Source of the DNA: Vermamoeba vermiformis
Lineage: Eukaryota
DNA: 64,000 nt
Direction: 5' to 3'
Assembly: GCA_045837725.1 (NCBI GenBank)
Contig: JBEWZL010000232.1
Location: 1 to 64,000, forward strand
Shown here: positions 15,575 to 61,591 of the stretch, piece after piece
Layout: each line of letters opens with the position of its first letter
Position numbering within the stretch: position 1 is the stretch's first letter
Program-made: the position numbers and the translations under genes
Notes under the pieces: generated by a model
Seen by the model: only the letters and a program-made list of their open reading frames with translations
What the model was told of the DNA's origin: nothing
Databases searched by the model: none

Positions 15575-18500
15575 ATGGTACGTGAATGGATCGCGGTTAA
15601 GAAAATTGATCTGCGTATCGATATCTTCGTATTAAACTCGTGCTAAATTAATGACAGGAGGAAATACTATTAAATACGGATGGATGCATTAAGGGTAAGT
15701 CGTTTCAAAACAATTTTAAACAATTATTAAAATTAACGGCGAATCTGTAAATTAAAAATAAATTTGTAGGCGCTTGCATGGCAAAACTGATGGAACATAT
15801 AACGTTACCTGGAGAAGAACAACCGGGTACGCTTGTTGATTAATTTTTCTTTGCTGTCTAACGGCTAAATGGCTCGATCAACAGACAGATCTCGCTTAAC
15901 CAGGGACATTCTGTTCATGCATAGAAACTTTTCGACACACTCTGAATTATTTGACGCATTAATGAATAGATATCCTTAATAACAGGCTTACCTATTGAAT
16001 TCTTTTTCTTTTGTCACGTATCCAGTTCCCTTGAAATCTTTCCTTAACATCTATCACATTCTTAAAGTCTGCACAGGCAAATACAAGTAATTTGACTGCT
16101 ACACAACAAAAGTAAGCTCAGCAAAAAAATAAATTCCAGGACGAAATTTTATTTTCGCGACTAGCCGCTCTACCGAGCAATAGGACTAGTAATAATATGT
16201 ATTATTTAGAGTTCTCGATACCTTGCAACAATGGATCACGCAGTACCCTGACGACTGGGCGCAAGACTCCAAGCTACGAAACAAAGCAAGAGCTTTCTTA
16301 GACAACAATCCAGCTTTTAGCGCACACTTCGAGACACTATCACAACAAGTAACGCAAACGAAGCGCCAATTTGTTAAGTTATACAACGCTTGGGAGATCG
16401 AAAGAACTCGTACGTAATTTTCTAATTTTTCTCAATCCTTCGTACGTGCGTAAATTATTTTATAATATTTTTATTATTATTTTAGCGGTATTTGACGCCA
16501 ATAAAACGGATCTGCTCTCGTGGGATCCGACAGATCTTGCCAAGGAAATGTTTCTATTCGACGCCTCGCTCTTTATCGAAGTCCATCGCACTGATTTCTT
16601 AGGACTACTTAATAAATCAGAAGATGTCGAGTATTTCACGAGATTTGAGTCCATGGGCAAACGGGTACGACAAAATTCTAAGTTGAAAATTCAAAAACTG
16701 ACCGTACTACAATTAGCGCGTAGAATGGGTCGCCAGTGAGTTGTACAAACAAGATGCAGACAAAGCCGCGAGAAAACTGAAAGCTATCGTGATGCTCGTC
16801 GAGGTACAACCGAATCTGTGTTTTATCTTATTCAAAATTAACCCACTTGCTTAGGCCTGCCTAGAGTATAATAACCTGTTTGCTGCTAGCTATATTTTGC
16901 TAGGATTGCAAGGCGAATCAATGAACAAATTGAGCGCATGCTGGGAACAGGGTCCGACTAAGATCTTGACCTGCGCGAAGAACTTGAACGACAAAGTCAA
17001 GCAATTGCAAACCAACGATAATAAGACCACGACTTATATCCCTCATTTAGGTAACGTCTATTTTACCAACAAGATTTTGTAATTCACAAAACAGCGGATA
17101 TCCGCTTTACTTCCAGAAGCTAATTCGAACTATAGAGGTGCTTCGCGAGCAAATGCAACAAAGCTCAAAAGACATTGACAGCATGCCACCAAACGTAATC
17201 AACATTCAGTGGGTCAGGAGGTTTTCAGGTACGCGAGACTCGGATCCTTCAAGATCTGTGCCCTTTACTGACGTTTCTACTCGCAGATATATTGATGCCT
17301 ATTTACACCGCTGCACAAAGACTGCTCAAATCCACACCTCCTTTCCCTTACAATCTCGCTGCGAGATATTTCTTAACCAATCTTAGAGTTATCGAGAATC
17401 GAATACCAGACGAAGGTAGAGCCACAACTATTGTCTTCTCGCGTAATTTACTCATTTGATATGTTTGTATTAGGTGCGGGCGCTGCAGCTGCCAATCAAC
17501 TGACGGAAAATGCCGAGGACACAAAGCGAAGGAGGCCGTGGGCTTTACGAAGAAAAATATACAATGGTATGCTTGTCTACTCAACTTATTATACAATCTG
17601 TTAATATTTGTGTTAAGGTCGCTTAGGCCGATTATTCGGACGAGGCAGCAGCAACAATGTAATCAACCAAGAAGTTTCTTCGAGACTAGCACTGAGTGAC
17701 GAAGGAGATTTCGATCCGACTGATTTGCGCAGCTCAGCTAGCTTTATGTCGCTCGAGAAGCAGCTTGAAGATATTGAAGGCATTATTTCTACGAAATCTC
17801 AAAAGTCTGATGACGCAAATCTAAGGTTGGTCAAGTTCAAAGAGCTGTTGAAAACTGAGAGCAATTACGTATATTGCTTGGCTTATTATGTCAATAACAA
17901 TCTGAACGAGCTAAAAGTCAACAAGATCTGCTCGCAGAAAAAGATTGAGGTAAGTATCAGTATGTACTTTTACGAGAGCAATACTAATATCTATTTGAAG
18001 ATATTAAGCGGTAATATAGAACATATATTGCACTTCCATCGGTCGTTCTTGAACGCATTGAAGACTGCGTACTTGAATTGGAACGACAAAACAACCGAAG
18101 TCGGCGCTATTTTCCTTAACTACGTAAGCCTATTTGTTCGTATTAAATTTATCAACACTGACCTATAAATATGATAGCATCGATACTTTCACATCTACAT
18201 TGACTTCGTAATGAATTTCGACTTGGCAAGCGAGGTAATCGAAAAATTGAAAGTCAAAAATACATTATTCGCCGAGCTGGACGAGGTAAATATAGTCCGT
18301 TAATATTATATATGGTACTGATGATTATATAGCGGCTGAAAAACGAAGACGAATCTCAAAATTTAGACTTTGCGTCAATTTTAATTCGGCCAGTCCAGCG
18401 CATCCCTCGCTACATATTGTTGCTCGAAGAGATGCTAAAGGGCACAAATAAGACTCATGCAGACTATAATAAGCTCAAGGATGCTTTGAGTAAGTCATTT

Positions 18501-49947: not shown

Positions 49948-52900
49948 ATGAGTTCGAGCAGCGGTGAAGACACGCTGTCTCCTCTGGAAAGCAACAATAC
50001 GAACGTGAAATCTCCGACCTTAAGCAAACGTTCTGCATCGCCTGGCAAGACTCGATGGCGTCACTCGTCGGGCAGTAACGGCACTACTTCGAAGAATTCC
50101 GGATCCAAATCCAAGCGCAGTTCGCTTTCTTTTGGCAAGCAAGACGCTTTGGAAGCTCTTCGAGAGGTAAGTACATCAAAATAACTGGTAAATTACGCGT
50201 AAATTATGGAATTCGGCCTGTCAGATCGAAATGACACAAGCATTGCAAGTATTTCACGTGTAATAATTTACTCTATTTCGGGCATTTATTTTTCATGAAA
50301 CTTAAAATGTGTAAAGTTTCCGAGCTGATAGTACTTCTTTGTAGCTGGAAGATGACGATGCACCGCCTCTGGACTCCACCCGATCGGTAAGTCATTCCAC
50401 GGAAGTTAAGTTTTTCCACCGGATCTGATCACATCCGCAGAGCTCCGAAGCAGTATGGCGCGAGAAGAATGGAAAGGTGGTCATAGTACGGGCTCAGATA
50501 CCCTTCTTGGTCCGAAGTTTACTAGCCGATAACTCAGGTATATAACAGCAGCGGAACAAAAAGTTTACCTTTACTGAATCTGACACGGACTTTCAATTCC
50601 AGATCAGAATTACCTCGAATACTTCTTATCCACCTACGACTACTTCCTGGACACTATTTATCTGTTGCAAATGCTTATTGACATGTAAGTACATACTAAA
50701 GTATCTTTACCTCATTCGGAGATATATTTTCATCTGATAAATTTTAACCTCCGCTACTTAAGGTACCACTCTCCGCCGGATATCGGTACTGCCGCAGCAG
50801 ATGACTTGGACGCATTAGGTTCTAAGGTCATCATCCAATTAAGGTAAGTCGTCTTGAAAGCTTTGTACCGACGGATGCGATCCGGTACTAACGCCATGTA
50901 TTTCAGAATCATCAATGTTTTAAAGAAGATTGGCGACCTTAAATACAACACTTACAAAGATGACCAGCGCTGGTTGGCTATCTTCTCTAAGTTCATCGGT
51001 ACTCTTGAAGCTGGTTCCGAGATCGAGCGAAGTTGCGCTTTACGACTCAAGATCTTTGCTGTAAGTCCTTTCATACATTCATTGGTGTCATATATTAACG
51101 GTGTATATAGTCAAACAGGTCTAATATCGGTACATTTGTTACGCCATTTCCGAAGTTCAATCCTGCGAAAGGTGCAGAATTCGACTTTTTGATGGCGGAT
51201 CCGAAAGCCATTGCCAAGCAACTTTGCTTGCTTGACTTGAAATTGATTAAGGCCATACCAGTAGAAGAGTTGCATCATAAACGATTCGAAGAAAAGTCGT
51301 CTAACGCATCCACTGTCAAGACAAACATGGCTAAAGCGGTGGACAACTTCAATCAAGTAAGACTTACTATGACTGTTTTAATATAGCGAGACCATAATAA
51401 TTGTTATTTAGACGAGTTTTTGGTTGGCTTCATATTTCTTTGTCACCGACAACCCGAAGGATCGATTGCAGATCTTGTGCAAGTACATCCAGATCATGGA
51501 CTACTGTTTGCACTACAATAACTACAATGGCGTCATGAAAATCTTCTCGGCTCTCAATATGACGCCTGTTTCTAGTCTCGCTAACTACTGGAGCGAATTG
51601 CCTCCCGAGTTTGCCGCCATCTGGGAACGAATCCAACAGGTTATGAATCACAGTCATAACTACAAGAGCTATCGTGAGATGCTTGAAAAAGCTAAACCTC
51701 CGTGCCTACCCTACTTAGGTAATTCTAAATATAGATTTATGTGGATTAAAAAAATTACTAACTCGATCGATGCATAAGGATTGATCCTCCGTGATTTGAT
51801 TTACATCGAAGAACTGGATGATAAGGTCGGCGATATGGTTAACTGGGAGAAGATGCATTTACTAGGCAAGACCTTCAGCACCTTCACTAAGTTCCAGAGG
51901 CAGATCTTCGCCTTCGAAGAAGATCCGGTGATCTTGAACTTCTTCGGCGACATTTCTGGCAGCAAAGGCGTCCTCTTCGACGAAGCTGTATTATATGAGA
52001 TTAGCAGGGAAGCCAAGGCTGACGTAGTCAAGTGTAAGTTGATATCATTATAACGCGAGTTGGAATCCGAATCTGATCCGTTCAATTTTTAGCTTCACCT
52101 CCTACACTTCAAATGACGAATGGTCCGTCTAGCGGAGGCAGAAGTAAACTAACTTCTTCAAGCGACTCTGCAGCAAGCAGTCCTAAAGGCCGCGACAAGC
52201 GAGTCGGAAGTTTTAGCCGATCCACGCCGCAGTACAACTTCACCGACACCGGTAGCGAGATCTCAGACAGTGAAATCTCTACGAGTGAAACCAACGACTA
52301 CTCTATGGACTGGGAGGACGAGACATCGTTTAGTTCATTGATGGAGGCCAATGCTTCGTCCACAAGCATGTCGACTTCGAACACATCCAGATCCGAAAAG
52401 AGCCGAACGGATTATACGTACCACTTGCCTTTTTGGGTAAAGAAGCGAGAAGTCACGACTCTTGACGGTCAAAAGGTCTTATTAGGAGACATATTCGAGA
52501 AATCTACGGTTGTATTCGTTTTGTTGAGACAATTCGGGTGGTAAGTTTGAACTCAGATCACGCTTAGGTATGGTATTAATTTCTGCTTAGATTGTTGTGC
52601 AGGAAGTCAGCCAATGAGCTGGCTCAAGTCAAACCATTCTTCGACTTACTGTAAGTACCGGACAAACTGCGGATGTGGCAATACTTAAATTTTATTAGTG
52701 GGGTGAAGTTAGTCGCGATTGGTAGCGGTACTCCTGCAATGGCTCGAGATTTCAAAGAAGAACGAGGATTCTCGGGCGAGATCTACGTCGATCAGTCCAA
52801 GCAGATCTACGACGACTTCAACTGCACTCGCGGTTGGAAGAACGCTTTGTTCAACTCTAAGACCTTAAAGACCATCAAAAACGCTTTCAAAGAAGGCTAT

Positions 52901-53526
52901 GCTCAAGGTTCTACGCAAGGAGATATGTTGTAAGTTAGCGCGTACTGGATTACGAAATTTCCTTTTTCGCTGCAACGCGATTGGTCGGTTATTTTCAGCT
53001 CTTACTGAATTGTTTCTTAGGCAAAATGGAGGAACATTCATTCTCAAGGACTTCCGTGTTATCTACGAGCATATCGAAAAGTTCGCTGGTGACCATGCGG
53101 ATGTGATCCAGTTGCTTCAAATCGTTGGTGCGGATCAAGGCCTAATCGAACGAGTTTACTTAGAAACACCAAAACTCCGCAAGAAAAAGGTACGAAACTC
53201 GTAATACTCCTTAGAAATAGATTACTAATGTTTATTTAATCCAGGCTAAGCTTGAAAGGAAAATTGAGAAATACCAGCGCAAGCTCAACTCGATTACTGA
53301 AGACTTGGAAGCTCAACCTACGAGCTCATTAAGCAAGTCTTTGGACCATCCTCCTCGTGCGTCTTCTGACAGCAAGTTCGCGGAATTGATCGCGAAAAGG
53401 AAACGCAAGAGCGAACAAAAGAAAAAAGAGCGCGAAGAGACGATAAAGTCCAAGCTTCAGACTTACACCAAGCAACGAGAAGAGCTCGAACCTGGTCTTA
53501 AAGCGGGTAGCCTCGTAGAGGAATAA
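49948..53526 (+). CDS. RasGEF (REM + CDC25) fused to a SelU/PRXL2-like (AhpC-TSA_2) domain; predicted selenoprotein with UxxC motif
   Basis: RasGEF: IAKQLCLLD, NNYNGVMKIFSALN, NYKSYRE, PCLPYLGLILRDL, VNWEK. In-frame junction at 52033|52093. Redox domain VFVLLRQFG-U-LLCRK...GVKLVAIGSG...IYVD...QGDMLQNGGTF...GDH. The UGA is TG(52539-52540)|A(52591). Confidence 0.88.
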
Positions 53527-53635
53527 GAACCGAACATCAAAGTTTTGCGTTGAATAATAGCAAGGGACCTAAAGACAGCTCAAATCACCCGTGAGCGAGT
53601 TTTTTTGTCCTGATCGGATCTAGTGCGCGAACGGA

Positions 53636-53721
53636 TCTATCAAAATTGGCGTGAAGTCCTATGCGACAACTCCGAATATCAAAAGGAGCAGCATATGGTA
53701 CTGATATTATGTTTTGGTAGA
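53636..53721 (+). promoter_or_regulatory. Eukaryotic SECIS element (type II, GUGA_AA_GA) in the 3' UTR
   Basis: Helix I TCTATCAAAAT/GTTTTGGTAGA (11 bp incl. G-U). Core GTGAA(53651)/TGAT(53702). Helix II GTCCTATGC/GCATATGGTAC with two bulges. Apical AA at 53668-53669 and mini-helix CTCC/GGAG. About 110 nt after the stop codon. Confidence 0.82.
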
Positions 53722-53980
53722 ACTGTCGTGGACTGATCTGGTCCGCTACAAATGACGGCAAATTTTTGTTAGTTTTATTTCGAAACGAATTTTGTAAATA
53801 GCCTATGTACATAAAAAAAGCTCATTTCAATGTCTGTCAGAGATTATTATATTTCAGCTGTCCAACATTAAATCGTCGAAAAGCCTCGGAAATGGCCATT
53901 CGCAGATCTAGCAACAATAACTGTTTTTATGTACAAATTTACAAAGTTTAAGATTGATACGAGTGATGATATTACCGTCA

Positions 53981-56394
53981 TTAAATATCTACCACTTCGT
54001 ACTCTTCTTCGTCATCGCTTTCTTTGTCTTGATCCGCGTTAGATTCAGGTTTGTTGGCGGCAATGAAGAGCTTGTTCAAGAAATGTGCCATGATCTGCAT
54101 ATTTCTCTCGAGTCTGTCGTCCATAATCTTCTTTTCTCGAGCAGTTGTAGCATAGCCAGCACCTTCTCGGATCACGACTTCAGTCTCCATATTGCCGTCG
54201 ACGAGGTGCGTGATGAACTGCACAGGCGTCAAATCGACATTAGGAAAGTTGTTCTTAATGACATCGACACCAGTGTTGAACGCGTGTTTGATCTCGCCAG
54301 TGGTGTCTTTGACTTTAATCGACAACTCTTTGGTGCAATTCCATACGACATTTTTCATCAAGGACTCATCATCTAAGCATCATATATTAGTATACTACGC
54401 TTTATACGAACATAAGGATGCTATTTTCTTACTGAAATGGACTTTGATGGCCGTGCTGTTATCGAGTTGCATGGTAAAGATAGGCACGAAGACGTTCAGT
54501 GTGACATTGCTGCATTCAATCATCTCGAGTGTGCTCGTCAAGACAGCGGCATTGATATTCAATACAACGTTGTCACATCGCTCTGTAAAGTGATAACGTT
54601 AGTAAAAGTGCACGGGTAGATCCGGATCCAAAAATGACTTACCTAGGACCAACTTTGTGCACTTCTTATTGAGGTCAAATACGGAGTTCTTGCATTCTTT
54701 AAGATAGACAAGGTCTTTAAAGCTAAATCCTTCAATTTTCATCTTTTGATCGTTCTCCTGATCTACGAAAAAAATTCCTCGACGCGAGATCTTGCGAACA
54801 GGTGGGGCAGGTAAGTCACCAATAGAGCTCGGTTGATTATCGTTTTCTAGCTTAGGGTTGGCCCTAGCTTGCTTAATTTCATCGATTTTTTGTAGCTGGA
54901 ACTCGTTGATCTGTTCTGCAGTGCGTAAACTGTGCTCGATGCCGGTAGGTGTTTTGGCGAGCGGATCGAGCTTCAATTCTTGCAGTAACAGCGTCATGAA
55001 GTCATCAGTAGTGCATCTGACAACAGTAGAAGCAAGAGAGTCATCTAAAAGATTGGTTAATTAATCGGATCTCGATCGGGTAAATTCTTCGCTGAAATTG
55101 TGATTTGATTGCAATTTGAGTGCAATTAATGAAAATAGTAAAAAATATATATGCCACTTACATGGAGTCTTTTGTAGATTGACAATAATCATTTTGCCGT
55201 CTTTTTCAGTGCAGTACAGAGGCAGTTGGCAAGCCGGTTTTACGCGCATGGATGTGCCCATGACGAGCGTCAAATCAGCCGCATTTGAAGCAGTAATAGC
55301 GTCACTGAGTTCCTTTTCGGGTAAGTTCTCACCAAAGTTAATAATAGTGTTCACTGAAAAAGAAAAAGTTGGTTAGATCCTGTCCGGTACAACGAGAACT
55401 TTCAGACCGTAAAATTTCAGTCAAAAGACTTTAGCGTCATTTTTAGTTATCTATACTCTTAATATTACTTTAAAGCGATAACTTACTGAGATCACCGTCG
55501 CATCCAGGTTGCTCGCACTTATTTCCAGTCGCGTGACCTCGTCCCTTGCAGACGTTGTGGTCGCGCAGGAATTCAGTATTGCACTTTCTGCATCGCTCCA
55601 AATAAGCATTGCCGTGGAGCTCAGACAACTATAGCATGTTTTAGTCATATATGATAATTAGTCTATACGAGGATGAAGTACCTTTTCCCTAGGGAACCCG
55701 GATCTCATGTGCAGCCCATCAGTGTTAGTACTAACGAGATACTTAACGATACCAAGCTTCTCTAATTGAACGAGGGTCATATGGCAGACCTAAATAATTG
55801 GCAGAGTTAGCGTTTGCCTAAATCAGCTACAAAAACAAATCTACTTACAGTCGGATGCAGATCTTCTAACCTCTTATTAAAATTGGGCTTTGATCCTTTA
55901 GCAGCTAATGTCCATACGCCTTGTGGTCCTCGGAAATCAGGCAAGCTGGTCGAAGTGGAAACACCAGCGCCAGTGTACACCACAATATTCTTAGCTGCGC
56001 GCATCAATTCTGCAACTTTCTTCACCTATATATTATTAAATAATAAAATTAATAAAAATTCGGCAAGCAAGAATTTGCGATCTGAACTTTATGCTCAGAT
56101 GACCGAAGACTCACCTTTTGATGAAGAGTTTCAGGCTCATCATAATATTCTGTAATATCCTCGCCAGGGTTATGAGCGTAACGGCCTCCAGGTAATGCAG
56201 GAGGTTTCACAGCCACATCTCGTCGTTCAACCTGAAGTCAATTTCAGTTAGAAAATTGTAGAATAATTAAAATTAAATTTTTTTAGTTGAATAATATTAT
56301 TAGTAGTTGATTGATAGTAAAGGCTTACCGTATTGACTGACTTTAAATATTTTTTATCAAATCCGACAAGTTCTCCAAGCAAGCCACTCTCCAT
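53981..56394 (-). CDS. Class IV (SIRT6/7-like) sirtuin with N-terminal WH2/thymosin-like motif and C-terminal CAP_C-like domain
   Basis: [36 protein letters not shown], CxxC..CxxxxC Zn site, [26 protein letters not shown]; then L.ECKNS/ERCDNV beta-helix-like repeats and QFIT..V.G...TE.V.REG.GY.TT.RE. Confidence 0.85.
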
Positions 56395-57399: not shown

Positions 57400-60300
57400 A
57401 TGGAGAGCCTGAAGTGTGGATGGTTGAAATTTTATCGCGTATTTGATTCTGAATCGCGCGACGAAGTTAAGAAAGATATTCAAAGGCACTGGTTCATCTT
57501 GCGGCCTGACGGACTTTTGTTTCACTCAAAGGAAAAGGCAAAGGTATTTATAATAGAAAGTTACAGTGGATCGACAATACGCAATTTTAATTATAATTAA
57601 TTGGGACCACAAAGGTCATCTCTAAACCCGATCAAAAAAAGTTTTAAATTTCAACCTTAATAATAATATCATTTTAGATTGAATCGTACGGAAGTTATGT
57701 AAAAGTAGCCAGTTTCGATACAATCACCGATAGCGATGAAGAGTTTGGATTCGTTGGATGTATGCTAACGAACAAGGTAAAAAAGAAGATATTTATCATA
57801 ATCATTATTAGCATTGAGCATTTAATATAATTTGGTAATTTATCGATGACGTTTTCATTAATGAATAGGAGCAAGGTCCGAATTTAATACGCTTCAAATT
57901 TTCTTTGATTGCCAATTTTATCAAGCGGGATCGGCATTCACAAATATTTAATTTTTACGATCAAATATGAGCTAATCATAATTACGAAAGCTGTCATATT
58001 ATTTCATCGGCGCATCCGAAGAAGAACGACAAGAATGGATGAAAGCGTTACACAACCCGTCCTTTGCGGAACAAGAAGAAAATAAGGTACCGCATATTAT
58101 TATTAATATACTCATATATAGTCATATATAGCCCTATTTTATTATTTTAAAATCTATGTATCCCCATATGTGTATTTTAATCCCGATCTTCTTTTGCCCT
58201 AACAGTTCTCACTGAAAAAGAAACTCCAAAACAATCCATCGATTGATATTCAAAAATCTGATGACGAAGTATTAACGCCGAAAGACGGCGCATTGACCAA
58301 TCGTAAACAAGCCAAGTTATTGGGCTCAACTTCGGAGTCGTTCCTTCACCGAACACGAACTGTTAAAGACCCACAGTCGACTATTAGAACGTTGTACTCG
58401 TTATATGTGAAGAGTAAGATAATATTAGGCGATATATAACAAACGAGATTATTAACCTGTGGAAATTAAAGTGAGCGAGGCGAGAAATCTCAAGGGAATC
58501 AGGATCTCGAACAAAGGAGAAATTATCAAGTCAGATACGCCCAATCCTTATGCTTCGCTCGGGTTAGAGCACGCATGGGAACGAACACAAACGATAGCAA
58601 AGTCAGACGGACCTCTCTGGGCCGAGGAATTTCATCTGTAAGTACCACTCTGACACGTGTACTTTGACCCGTTCTAACGTCCTTACAGTGAGGTCGAGAA
58701 CCCTGATGTCTCGGCATTGACGGTATACGTGTGGGACGAAAACAAGAACTCGAAGGACCGCGTGATTGGCAAGTTGACACTGCCAATTAAACAGGTCAAA
58801 GAGGACGTTAAACAAGAGGATTGGTATCCACTTACATTCGTGCCAAGTGCATCAGTAGCCACTGGTGATATTCACGTGCGAATTGAATTCCCGAAGGGCG
58901 GTGCTATGATCTTGTTTACTGGTACGTAAACTGCTAATTTTAAATTAATTAATGCGTTCAGTGAACCACGAACCTAACGAATTATTTTTAATATTTTAGT
59001 CGTGGAAGGTCGAAATGTTTGCAATCATATTCATTCTTGTAAGTAATGCGAGATTCTGGCGAGACAATCTTTACCGGATCTACCGATGTTTTCTGGATCT
59101 AATTCTTATTTTTAGCGCAAGATTTGGTCGTTAAAGTGACCTATGGCAAGTCGCAATTGTTTAAGACCAAGACCTTGCATAAGACTCTCAATCCTGATTG
59201 GAACGAAACTTTCCAACTGTAAGCCGGATCAGGTCTAAAAATAGTGTGGGCCACAATACTAATTTTGGCATAGGAAATTCGAGCCAATGTCAAAAGAGGT
59301 CCTATTGCAAGTCGTAAAAGTTGGCACATCCAAGTTGAACGTACGTTTTACAAACTTTGGACCTCCTGCCGATAAATATTTATTAATTTTTTTTTCTTTA
59401 GCCCAAGTCCTCTTTATTAGGACAAGTCCGCATTCCTATCGAAAGAGTCGTAGAGTCCCGCTACATTGATGAATGGTATATCTTGGAGCCCGATATGGAT
59501 GAGGCGCTCAAGGAGTTAGATCTGGTTAAAAATAAGTTCTCCCTAATGGACGAAAAATTCGGCGATATCCGACTAACGCTTAGTCTTTCCGTAAGATATC
59601 ATAATATCGGCGTACAAAATTTAAACTAATTTTCCTTATTTAGAAATCACTTGTTTTGCCATTAGCGCATTACGACGATCTGATTCAATTGCTCTTAACT
59701 GACCCTTGGGGCTGCGTGCAGATCTTAGAAAAGACTGCCGCAAAAGAGCACCGAGATAGAGTGGCAAATATGATCGTGCGTATTTACGAAGCCCGAAACC
59801 AGTACGTATTCCGGATGTACCTTTTATGAAACGTGACACTGATGCAATTTGCTTACTAGGGCGCCCACTATCATTAAGAACCTTATTTCGCACGAAGTTG
59901 AAGAAGCTCATGACGTAGAAACTTTGTTCCGTGCCAACTCAATCGGATCCAAGGCGTTCGATATGTATATGAAGATGTGCGGCTTCCACTTCTTGTACGA
60001 CATTATTCATCCGACTGTAGCACAAATTTACGACGAAAAGAGGAGTATGGAGGTGAGTATCGATATTTCCGTTTCAATTTCAGATTTGGATGCGGCTTCG
60101 CAAGAACAAAAAAATCTGAATAATTTTTTTTAATAATAGGTCGATCCTTCTAAAATGGATAAAGGAGATGACGCTAAGAAGAATTTCAAACGACTCACCA
60201 CAATTTTGGATCAGCTGCTACAAAAAATTTATGCCTCAGCAGATCTCTGCCCTACGTAAGTTGCAAAAACTCAACATAAGTGCAATATGAAGCTCATAGT

Positions 60301-61362
60301 ATACTGTTATTAGCTCCTTGCGAGAAATTTTTGCGCATCTGTCGAAAGAAGTCAGCAGGCGGTTCCCTCAAGAGCCTAACATCAAATACATTGGTGTTAG
60401 CGGCTTCTTGTTTTTGCGATTCATTTGTGCAGCTATTTTAGGTCCTAAGCTATTCTCTATTATGCCTGGTAAGTTTACCTAAGCGAGTTTTATTTCTCGT
60501 GTACTGGATGCTGATCTTGGATTTCGATAGACCATCCTGAGTCTAAGGTCGCTAAAACATTGACCTTGATCGCTAAGACTGTCCAAAAGATAGCTAGCAT
60601 GGTCCCTGCCAATCCTCCAAGCACCGATCCGATCTTAGCTGAGTTGGATCAATACGTGGAGAAGCAACAAGAAAAGATGAAGAAATATATCGATGTTATT
60701 ACAGTACGTATTCCGTATTGATAAGCATTATAGTACTAATTGCGGTTTTAATAGACTGAAAGCGACAATCATGTTTTCAATCCTGCGAGCGTTGATATGG
60801 GCAAGGAGATCTCATCGTTAGTCGAGTACCTCAAAGAACAAAAAGAACCAATTGCCAACCTTTCGCGAGATAAGGACGAGGTAAGCGTTAAATAAGCCAT
60901 AGAAGTCATATCAACTATGTACTTACCGTGCGGCAGGTCGTCGCATCTATGGCCACGCGCATCCAACATCTTGTCACTGAATTGGGCAATAGAGCGCAAG
61001 AAATTACGCCAAGAGATGACTCATCGAGCCTTGACAAGAGCGAGGACCAAGAAGAGAGCTCAGAAAAACACTCCGGCAGCAGCACTCCTGGATTAGTCAA
61101 GTCGAAATCCGTGACCGATGCTTCTGACGAGAGACGGAGTAAGAGATTGAGCGTTGGTTCGTCGGGCGATTTTTCAGGCCAAAGCCCGATATCCAGCGCA
61201 TTGGCTGGTAGTAAAGCCAAGAAGTTCTTTGGTGATGTTGGAGCTGCAACAGTTAGTAGCTCTCCTCCTGGAAAATCAGCGAAAGAAAAGAAAGAAAAAC
61301 GAAGAAAATCGAGCTCGCATCACCGAGATGAAAAGAAGATCAATGAAGAAAAAGAAAAATAA
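57400..61362 (+). CDS. RasGAP with PH and two C2 domains; 5' end uncertain
   Basis: PH: GWL..RHWFIL...EEERQEWM. C2: VSEARNL..PNPY, KTLNPDWNETF. GAP: TLFRANS, EVDPSK, VSGFLFLRFICAAILGP, TLTLIAK. Confidence 0.88.
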
Positions 61363-61591
61363 TCAAAATAATATTTGATCTGATCCCTCTCTTGTTGTCA
61401 TTAGTAACCCCGTACTTGTATAATCAAACGTATTTATAAATATAATGAAGAAATTATATCAGTTTGTATTTCTTCTATTCTTGAATTACTGGCCATGAAA
61501 TTGACTTGTAACCTTAGATCTGCTGAGTATGACATACGGCACTACTGCTTTTTAAATCATTACACTGACTATTATTTTATAACATTCCGAT

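Follow-up and report, generated by a model that had tools for sequence, protein, structure and literature searches.

In the window (the whole stretch of 64,000 nucleotides that was analysed), we find a gene that very probably encodes an amoebal (Vermamoeba-like) exchange factor of the Ras family joined to a selenocysteine (Sec) form of the PRXL2/SelU-like domain, an in-frame UGA being recoded as Sec. The features on which this reading depends are as follows.

49948..53526, + strand: whole gene, 14 exons, 890 aa; RasGEF_N (REM) and CDC25 RasGEF domains, Ser/acidic linker, PRXL2/AhpC-TSA_2 domain (UxxC) and coiled-coil tail, as predicted
51210..51858, + strand: CDC25 RasGEF catalytic exons, two of which match Pfam PF00617 (E 6.7e-5 and 3.6e-29)
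52093..52540, + strand: exon 10, a single frame from the GEF side through the linker and as far as the PRXL2 domain's first strand; ends in TG
52539..52591, + strand: predicted Sec UGA codon, split by intron 10 into TG (52539-52540) and A (52591)
52541..52590, + strand: intron 10, 50 nt, GT-AG, interrupting the predicted Sec codon in phase 2; donor GTAAGT at 52541, acceptor AG at 52589-52590, then A
52574..52580, + strand: TATTAAT, resembling a branch point (putative function); distance 12 nt to the used AG, 24 nt to the second
52601..52602, + strand: second in-frame AG (CAG, then G), which opens the Arg codon following Cys647; not observed in use
52591..53189, + strand: exons 11-13, with the L-L-C of the motif and the remaining PRXL2/AhpC-TSA_2 domain
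53245..53526, + strand: last exon, charged tail with a predicted coiled coil, TAA stop
53651..53705, + strand: type II SECIS-like hairpin with GUGA core, 9-bp helix II, unpaired AA, ministem and GA on the 3' side; 125 nt past the stop

The reading frame of the 14-exon model runs from the ATG at 49948 to the TAA ending at 53526 and, when the first AG closes intron 10, gives 890 aa with a single internal TGA at codon 644 (F-G-U-L-L-C-R-K). This RasGEF-PRXL2 gene is present in a single copy in the genome. Model residues up to 643 align with the transcript open reading frame (ORF) P0003 and those from 645 with P0001. RNA joints are listed for 6 of the 13 introns; over the PRXL2 exons they connect 52650 to 52699, 52929 to 53021, and 53189 to 53245. 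When seven exons were scanned with Pfam, two matched RasGEF and one matched AhpC-TSA_2 (PF13911, 47.8 bits versus a cut-off of 27). The orthologue P0003 contains both the CDC25 (PF00617, 1e-46) and the REM (PF00618, 4e-11) domains, and its matches to the structures of RasGRF1, Epac2, and Sos1 range from 1e-28 to 1e-23. The gene product thereby has the domain set of a CDC25-type RasGEF, predicted to promote exchange on Ras, Rap, or Ral. The exchange factor and the PRXL2 domain are separated by a low-complexity linker of about 110 aa. The fusion is observed at the transcript level in two steps: the GEF, the linker, and the residues L-L-R-Q-F-G all lie within the single ORF P0003, which leads from the GEF to the motif, and junction reads lead from the motif onward. 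The C-terminal tail would form a coiled coil, and the model of the paralogue P0017 has two long helices.

The UGA codon comes into being through splicing, as the first-pass annotation had claimed: its bases are read as TG on one side of intron 10 and A on the other, and an RNA joint connects 52540 to 52591. This joint was recovered in four runs of relatives, as one contig in X1 and as 2, 3, and 3 reads in X3, X4, and X5 (eight reads). The X1 contig has a depth of 4.8 and is 95-99% alike to the window, while the raw reads of X3, X4, and X5 come from a relative that is mostly 90-95% alike, X3 and X4 representing one sample. The transcript ORF P0003, from the EukProt set of Vermamoeba vermiformis, independently points to the same acceptor. 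It is called complete at 641 aa, is 95% identical on the query exon, and ends in L-L-R-Q-F-G; since intron retention or use of the second AG would add W, this end argues for splicing at the first AG. The close match also makes a Vermamoeba the probable source of the window. Intron 10 is thus spliced at the first AG, making an in-frame UGA. A third AG, at 52567-52568 inside the intron, was rejected as an acceptor because it would leave an intron of 28 nt and shift the frame. It is directly followed by a donor-like GTATGG (52567-52574 in all), and the resulting 28- and 22-nt pieces look too short for introns.

The databases miss the selenoprotein by truncating it at the UGA, as in P0003, or by starting right after it, as in the intronless P0001 and P0009, which begin at the codon directly following the UGA. 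This differs from the error that the first-pass annotation expected of gene predictors, choice of the second AG, but in both cases the selenoprotein would go unnoticed.

The predicted Sec occupies the position of a redox-active residue. It aligns with Cys44 of human PRXL2B, the catalytic Cys of a CxxC motif (PMC12938796), and with Cys in most homologues; it also aligns with TGA in all three bacterial loci fetched, two of which are the same sequence. As modelled for the paralogue P0017 rather than for the gene's own joined protein, the (C/U)xxC motif would lie at the start of the helix that follows the first core strand of a thioredoxin fold, and this active-site helix would begin right after Sec. 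The alignment-based model has a pLDDT of 87 (47.6 when folded from the single sequence), and human PRXL2B is the best match of P0017 by sequence (5.7e-19) as well as by fold (E 4.7e-13).

Downstream of the stop codon, the hairpin at 53651-53705 folds with a z score of -3.6 and is the only match of a strict SECIS scan in the 128,000 nt formed by both strands of the window. Across the PRXL2 family of this genome, a SECIS-like hairpin lies 3' of five of the five TGA loci and of none of the seven Cys loci in the strict scan, and of 5/5 and 1/7, respectively, in a loose one. The strict scan was tuned after the matches had been seen and missed the hairpin of the selenophosphate synthetase gene SPS (-8.3 kcal/mol), which is similar and appeared at a looser energy limit; over 160,356 nt of other loci it gave six matches, two of them unexplained. 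These two (L023:1743-1810 on the + strand and L029:958-1017 counted on the - strand) stand without an identified selenoprotein gene and are probably false positives. The MAFFT alignment of the five hairpins was too poor for covariation, and RNA depth ends at 53606, before the hairpin, where the relatives' UTR may be too diverged. The hairpins of the window, L001, L005, L009, and L032 have in common an apical A-A-C-U-C ... G-A-G ministem, the unrelated SPS gene included; this ministem is possibly a signature of the lineage, useful for a genome-wide selenoprotein search. The genome also encodes the Sec machinery, with tRNA-Sec, SepSecS, and SPS (SPS2) with its own in-frame TGA, the SPS exons scoring below the whole-protein cut-off.

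It is barely credible that the UGA is instead a plain stop, which would leave a 643-aa RasGEF and a downstream frame that is dead or translated separately as a remnant. Such a stop would fall after an intact GEF, P0003 is called a complete ORF, and Rfam reports no SECIS in 52500-54200; the last point cannot judge here, because RF00031 (SECIS_1) has no match in the whole genome. Against a plain stop, conservation extends into the downstream frame (91% over 78 aa), the UGA takes the place of the catalytic Cys within a thioredoxin fold, hairpins track TGA across the paralogues, and bacterial homologues have TGA at the same place. With an in-frame UGA, an aligned redox Cys/Sec, a frame kept on both sides, and the SECIS-like pattern, the gene is well supported as a predicted eukaryotic selenoprotein. 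The preference for the Sec form in the first-pass annotation is accordingly borne out by junction reads, the SECIS-like hairpin, the Sec machinery, and the Cys and UGA homologues.

The same annotation had pointed to a second in-frame AG and proposed that the two acceptors switch the protein between a redox-active and a redox-dead GEF. In such a regulated switch both acceptors would be used, the second giving a full-length, selenium-independent, redox-dead exchange factor. The bases and the gene model confirm that this AG lies 12 nt downstream, as an in-frame CAG, and that its use yields an open 886-aa frame with W in place of U-L-L-C-R (net -4 aa). It is also the sole in-frame YAG within 15 nt among the gene's 13 acceptors, 2 of which have any in-frame AG. 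The switch itself found no backing in RNA. No joint from 52540 to 52603 is listed in the four runs, against the eight reads and one contig for 52591, at low depth and with 46-48% of each raw run read and joints listed only from three reads up. Exonic depth at this bin is 1.7, 3.6, and 3.3 in X3, X4, and X5, so that the eight junction reads nearly use it up and leave room for about one more. With 0 of 8 reads, the 95% upper bound on the share of the second AG is 31%, the base identity at 52601-52602 in the relative being unseen; the read depth thus leaves room for a minor (under about 30%) or condition-specific form, with no known selenium-depleted sample among the runs.

Other observations also weigh against a switch. 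The spacing from TATTAAT to the first AG (12 nt) resembles that of the other introns, as had been noted: a branch-like motif is found in 10 of the 12 other introns of the gene, 12-20 nt before the AG. The second AG would require a branch distance of 24 nt and the skipping of the first AG, while an AG at -20 to -3 occurs in 1 of those 12 introns. When conservation of the second AG was checked among the Sec genes with this intron, it was kept in one of four, this gene alone. More broadly, an AG at +12 is present in 3 of the 8 loci examined (L008 being omitted as a copy), namely, this gene and the Cys genes L003 and L004, where its use would create a stop; it is missing from the Sec paralogues L001, L005, and L009. 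Since the active-site helix would start right after Sec in the P0017 model, the acceptor shift would cost this helix its first turn, and all four of the collected proteins with R-x-[FY]-G-W retain the xxC that follows W. The coding sequence itself can account for the second AG. Of 50 homologues that have the full motif, 44 carry Arg directly after it, Cys codons end in a pyrimidine, and AGR makes up 10 of the 43 Arg codons of the gene; a YAG at +12 is therefore expected in about one-fifth of such genes. The second AG is compatible with chance and is best explained as a side effect of the conserved Cys-Arg codons that goes unused, and we consider a regulated acceptor switch to be quite improbable. 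Sec insertion versus termination at the UGA would be the likelier two-product toggle.

The genome holds 12 PRXL2 family loci, 5 with TGA and 7 with Cys, L007 and L008 being near copies. In 9 of the 12, a phase 2 intron lies inside the Sec/Cys codon (TGA in four, TGT or TGC in five). Because the same intron recurs in these loci and junction RNA supports it, the split codon is not a product of chance; its position is an inheritance from the family ancestor. The small genes L010 and L011 (G000:C244 and C221; one with TGA, one with Cys) carry an intron 2 nt later, past the codon and one base, and L012 has no intron at the Sec/Cys codon, which may reflect intron sliding. L009 and L010 are stand-alone Sec paralogues. 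The second Cys has been lost in some Cys loci, giving CxxS in L007/L008 and CxxM and CxxW in the PH-linked L003 and L004. L007 and L008 (G000:C77:616376-619582 and C220:239440-242646) are near-identical on two contigs, reflecting a recent duplication or haplotypes.

A second predicted selenoprotein Ras regulator is encoded by L005 (L023:2912-5655, G000:C102), with a RasGAP domain (Pfam E 8e-10), a Ser-rich linker, and a PRXL2 domain with the split TG/A codon and a SECIS-like hairpin. Modelled by coordinates, with predicted splicing, it forms a single frame from RasGAP through the linker into PRXL2 with one TGA; its RasGAP domain contains L-F-R, which we take to be an Arg-finger-like motif. L001 (L020:2100-5877, G000:C93) has RasGAP-like exons (23 bits, below the cut-off), with Lys at the expected Arg-finger position, upstream of a U-V-T-C PRXL2 domain and a SECIS-like hairpin, and is probably also a RasGAP fusion. 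The protein P0053 reads the spliced codon of L001 as W. Cys-type PRXL2 domains also occur within (PH-)RapGAP genes at L024, L025, and L029 (G000:C292, C77, and C298). A tree of 46 domains unites the split-codon Sec domains of Vermamoeba-like type (91/68, not firm) and places them apart from the RapGAP group (93/96). By phylogeny, it thus seems that a single Sec lineage became joined to an activator of Ras as well as to inactivators.

Other regulators lie in the window. A C2-RasGAP gene occupies 57678-61400 on the + strand, 4 kb downstream, and another RasGEF match is found at 16708-17070. On the - strand, convergent with the gene, 53981-56130 contains what appears to be a sirtuin (SIR2 exons) with a CAP_C-like domain attached, on weak matches of which three of four fall below the cut-off.

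We propose that a SECIS element located within the 3' UTR recodes the UGA as Sec, which would very probably yield the 890-aa protein, in which U644-L-L-C647 would stand where the active-site helix of a thioredoxin fold begins. The selenol may then be oxidized by peroxide or a disulfide and resolved by Cys647, a step that we hold to be an even call. With similar confidence, neither favored nor disfavored, the UxxC domain could act as a peroxide/thiol sensor or reductase that tunes the GEF, the redox state of its Ras partner, or its location. At low selenium, termination at the UGA would produce a GEF of 643 aa that keeps REM and CDC25 whole but lacks the redox domain and tail; alternatively, since three introns lie downstream, the mRNA may be subject to decay.

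The protein may be a genuine selenoprotein whose halves are merely tethered, the PRXL2 domain acting as an ordinary peroxide or lipid-peroxide reductase with no regulation of exchange. We give this somewhat less than an even chance, and it is compatible with the sequence-level part of our preferred explanation. The long linker between the domains and the stand-alone Sec paralogues L009 and L010 are in keeping with mere tethering, as are the very many Ras regulators available to fuse (115 RasGEF and 58 RasGAP exon matches in the genome), an abundance that raises the base rate of such fusions. Against it stands the repetition of the fusion: RasGEF in this gene, RasGAP in L005 and probably L001, and RapGAP in three Cys loci and in 13 of the 27 longer matches scanned among the 150 database matches listed. 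This repeated joining of PRXL2 to Ras-family regulators suggests a functional link. A still stronger proposal, which we consider unlikely though worth stating, is that selenium is wired into Ras signalling in both directions, Sec-PRXL2 sitting on a RasGEF and on one or two RasGAPs (L005 and L001), and that the selenol/selenyl-sulfide state, together with Sec insertion versus termination, would directly set Ras activation and inactivation.

Selenoproteins described so far are mostly free-standing oxidoreductases. What would be new here is the setting: an already known selenoprotein domain attached to a Ras exchange factor, in a genome where a sister Sec domain is predicted on a RasGAP. We found no RasGEF or RasGAP selenoprotein, no Vermamoeba selenoproteome, and no acceptor shift deleting a Sec codon in the literature searched, largely open-access papers; supplementary selenoproteome lists may include this gene. 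Among the database matches listed, no second lineage has the RasGEF-PRXL2 fusion; a GTDB scan found no relative, and a protein atlas queried with residues 480-641 of P0003 gave no usable match. Reported algal selenoprotein fusions are SELENOM-pVHL, SELENOM-ShKT, and GST-MSRA (PMC7539508), and TrxR-L has been reported in Acanthamoeba (PMC11459619). If our reading is correct, the gene would physically and directly connect Ras signalling with selenium supply and peroxide tone in a culturable amoeba, and GTPase-regulator selenoproteins would be a kind not found in the literature searched. Introns are known to hamper the building of Sec ORFs (PMC2874816). In this PRXL2 family alone, five predicted selenoproteins are misannotated by genome ORF scans and transcript callers, four of them because splicing is needed to create the UGA.

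In humans, alternative splicing decides whether the Sec form is made of SELENOS, through variant 1, and of SELENON, through an Alu exon (PMC3628699, PMC9076623). There, loss of the SECIS or gain of a poison exon has been observed, whereas the acceptor shift in our gene would delete the codon itself and was not observed. Fusion to GTPase-related domains may occur in some SelL-like proteins. Bacterial homologues of our gene have the motif R-H-F-G-U-x-x-C-R, and NF040769 (SelL-related) is the only NCBIfam match, at 67 and 90 bits, below the cut-off of 120. Prx-like UxxC/UxxU proteins are a listed prokaryotic selenoprotein family (PMC13188914). SelL, treated together with vertebrate SelU in PMC3316567, has a two-Sec motif, whereas the second position of our motif is TGC, giving UxxC, which sets the gene apart from SelL.

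The REM and CDC25 domains are those of the CDC25/Sos-type exchange factors and of the Dictyostelium RasGEF family. The accessible text of a survey of 25 Dictyostelium RasGEFs contains no occurrence of thioredoxin, redox, or peroxiredoxin (PMC1273635), and D. discoideum has five selenoproteins, with SECIS elements of type II, none of them a RasGEF (PMC2375036). The redox domain is closest to PRXL2/SelU (FAM213), including human PRXL2B, a prostamide/prostaglandin F synthase with which it shares AhpC-TSA_2, the U of our gene aligning with Cys44 of the CxxC motif; Sec forms of SelU are found in fish, birds, and unicellular eukaryotes (PMC2375036, PMC3316567). Unlike in PRXL2/SelU, the domain sits behind a REM and CDC25 exchange factor and before a predicted coiled coil. 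A parallel to this arrangement is offered by the protist PH-PRXL2(CxxC)-RapGAP proteins, on which our literature search found no publication. They likewise place the redox domain in a Ras-family regulator, but they differ in having the Cys form, no SECIS, the opposite activity, and a separate branch of the tree.
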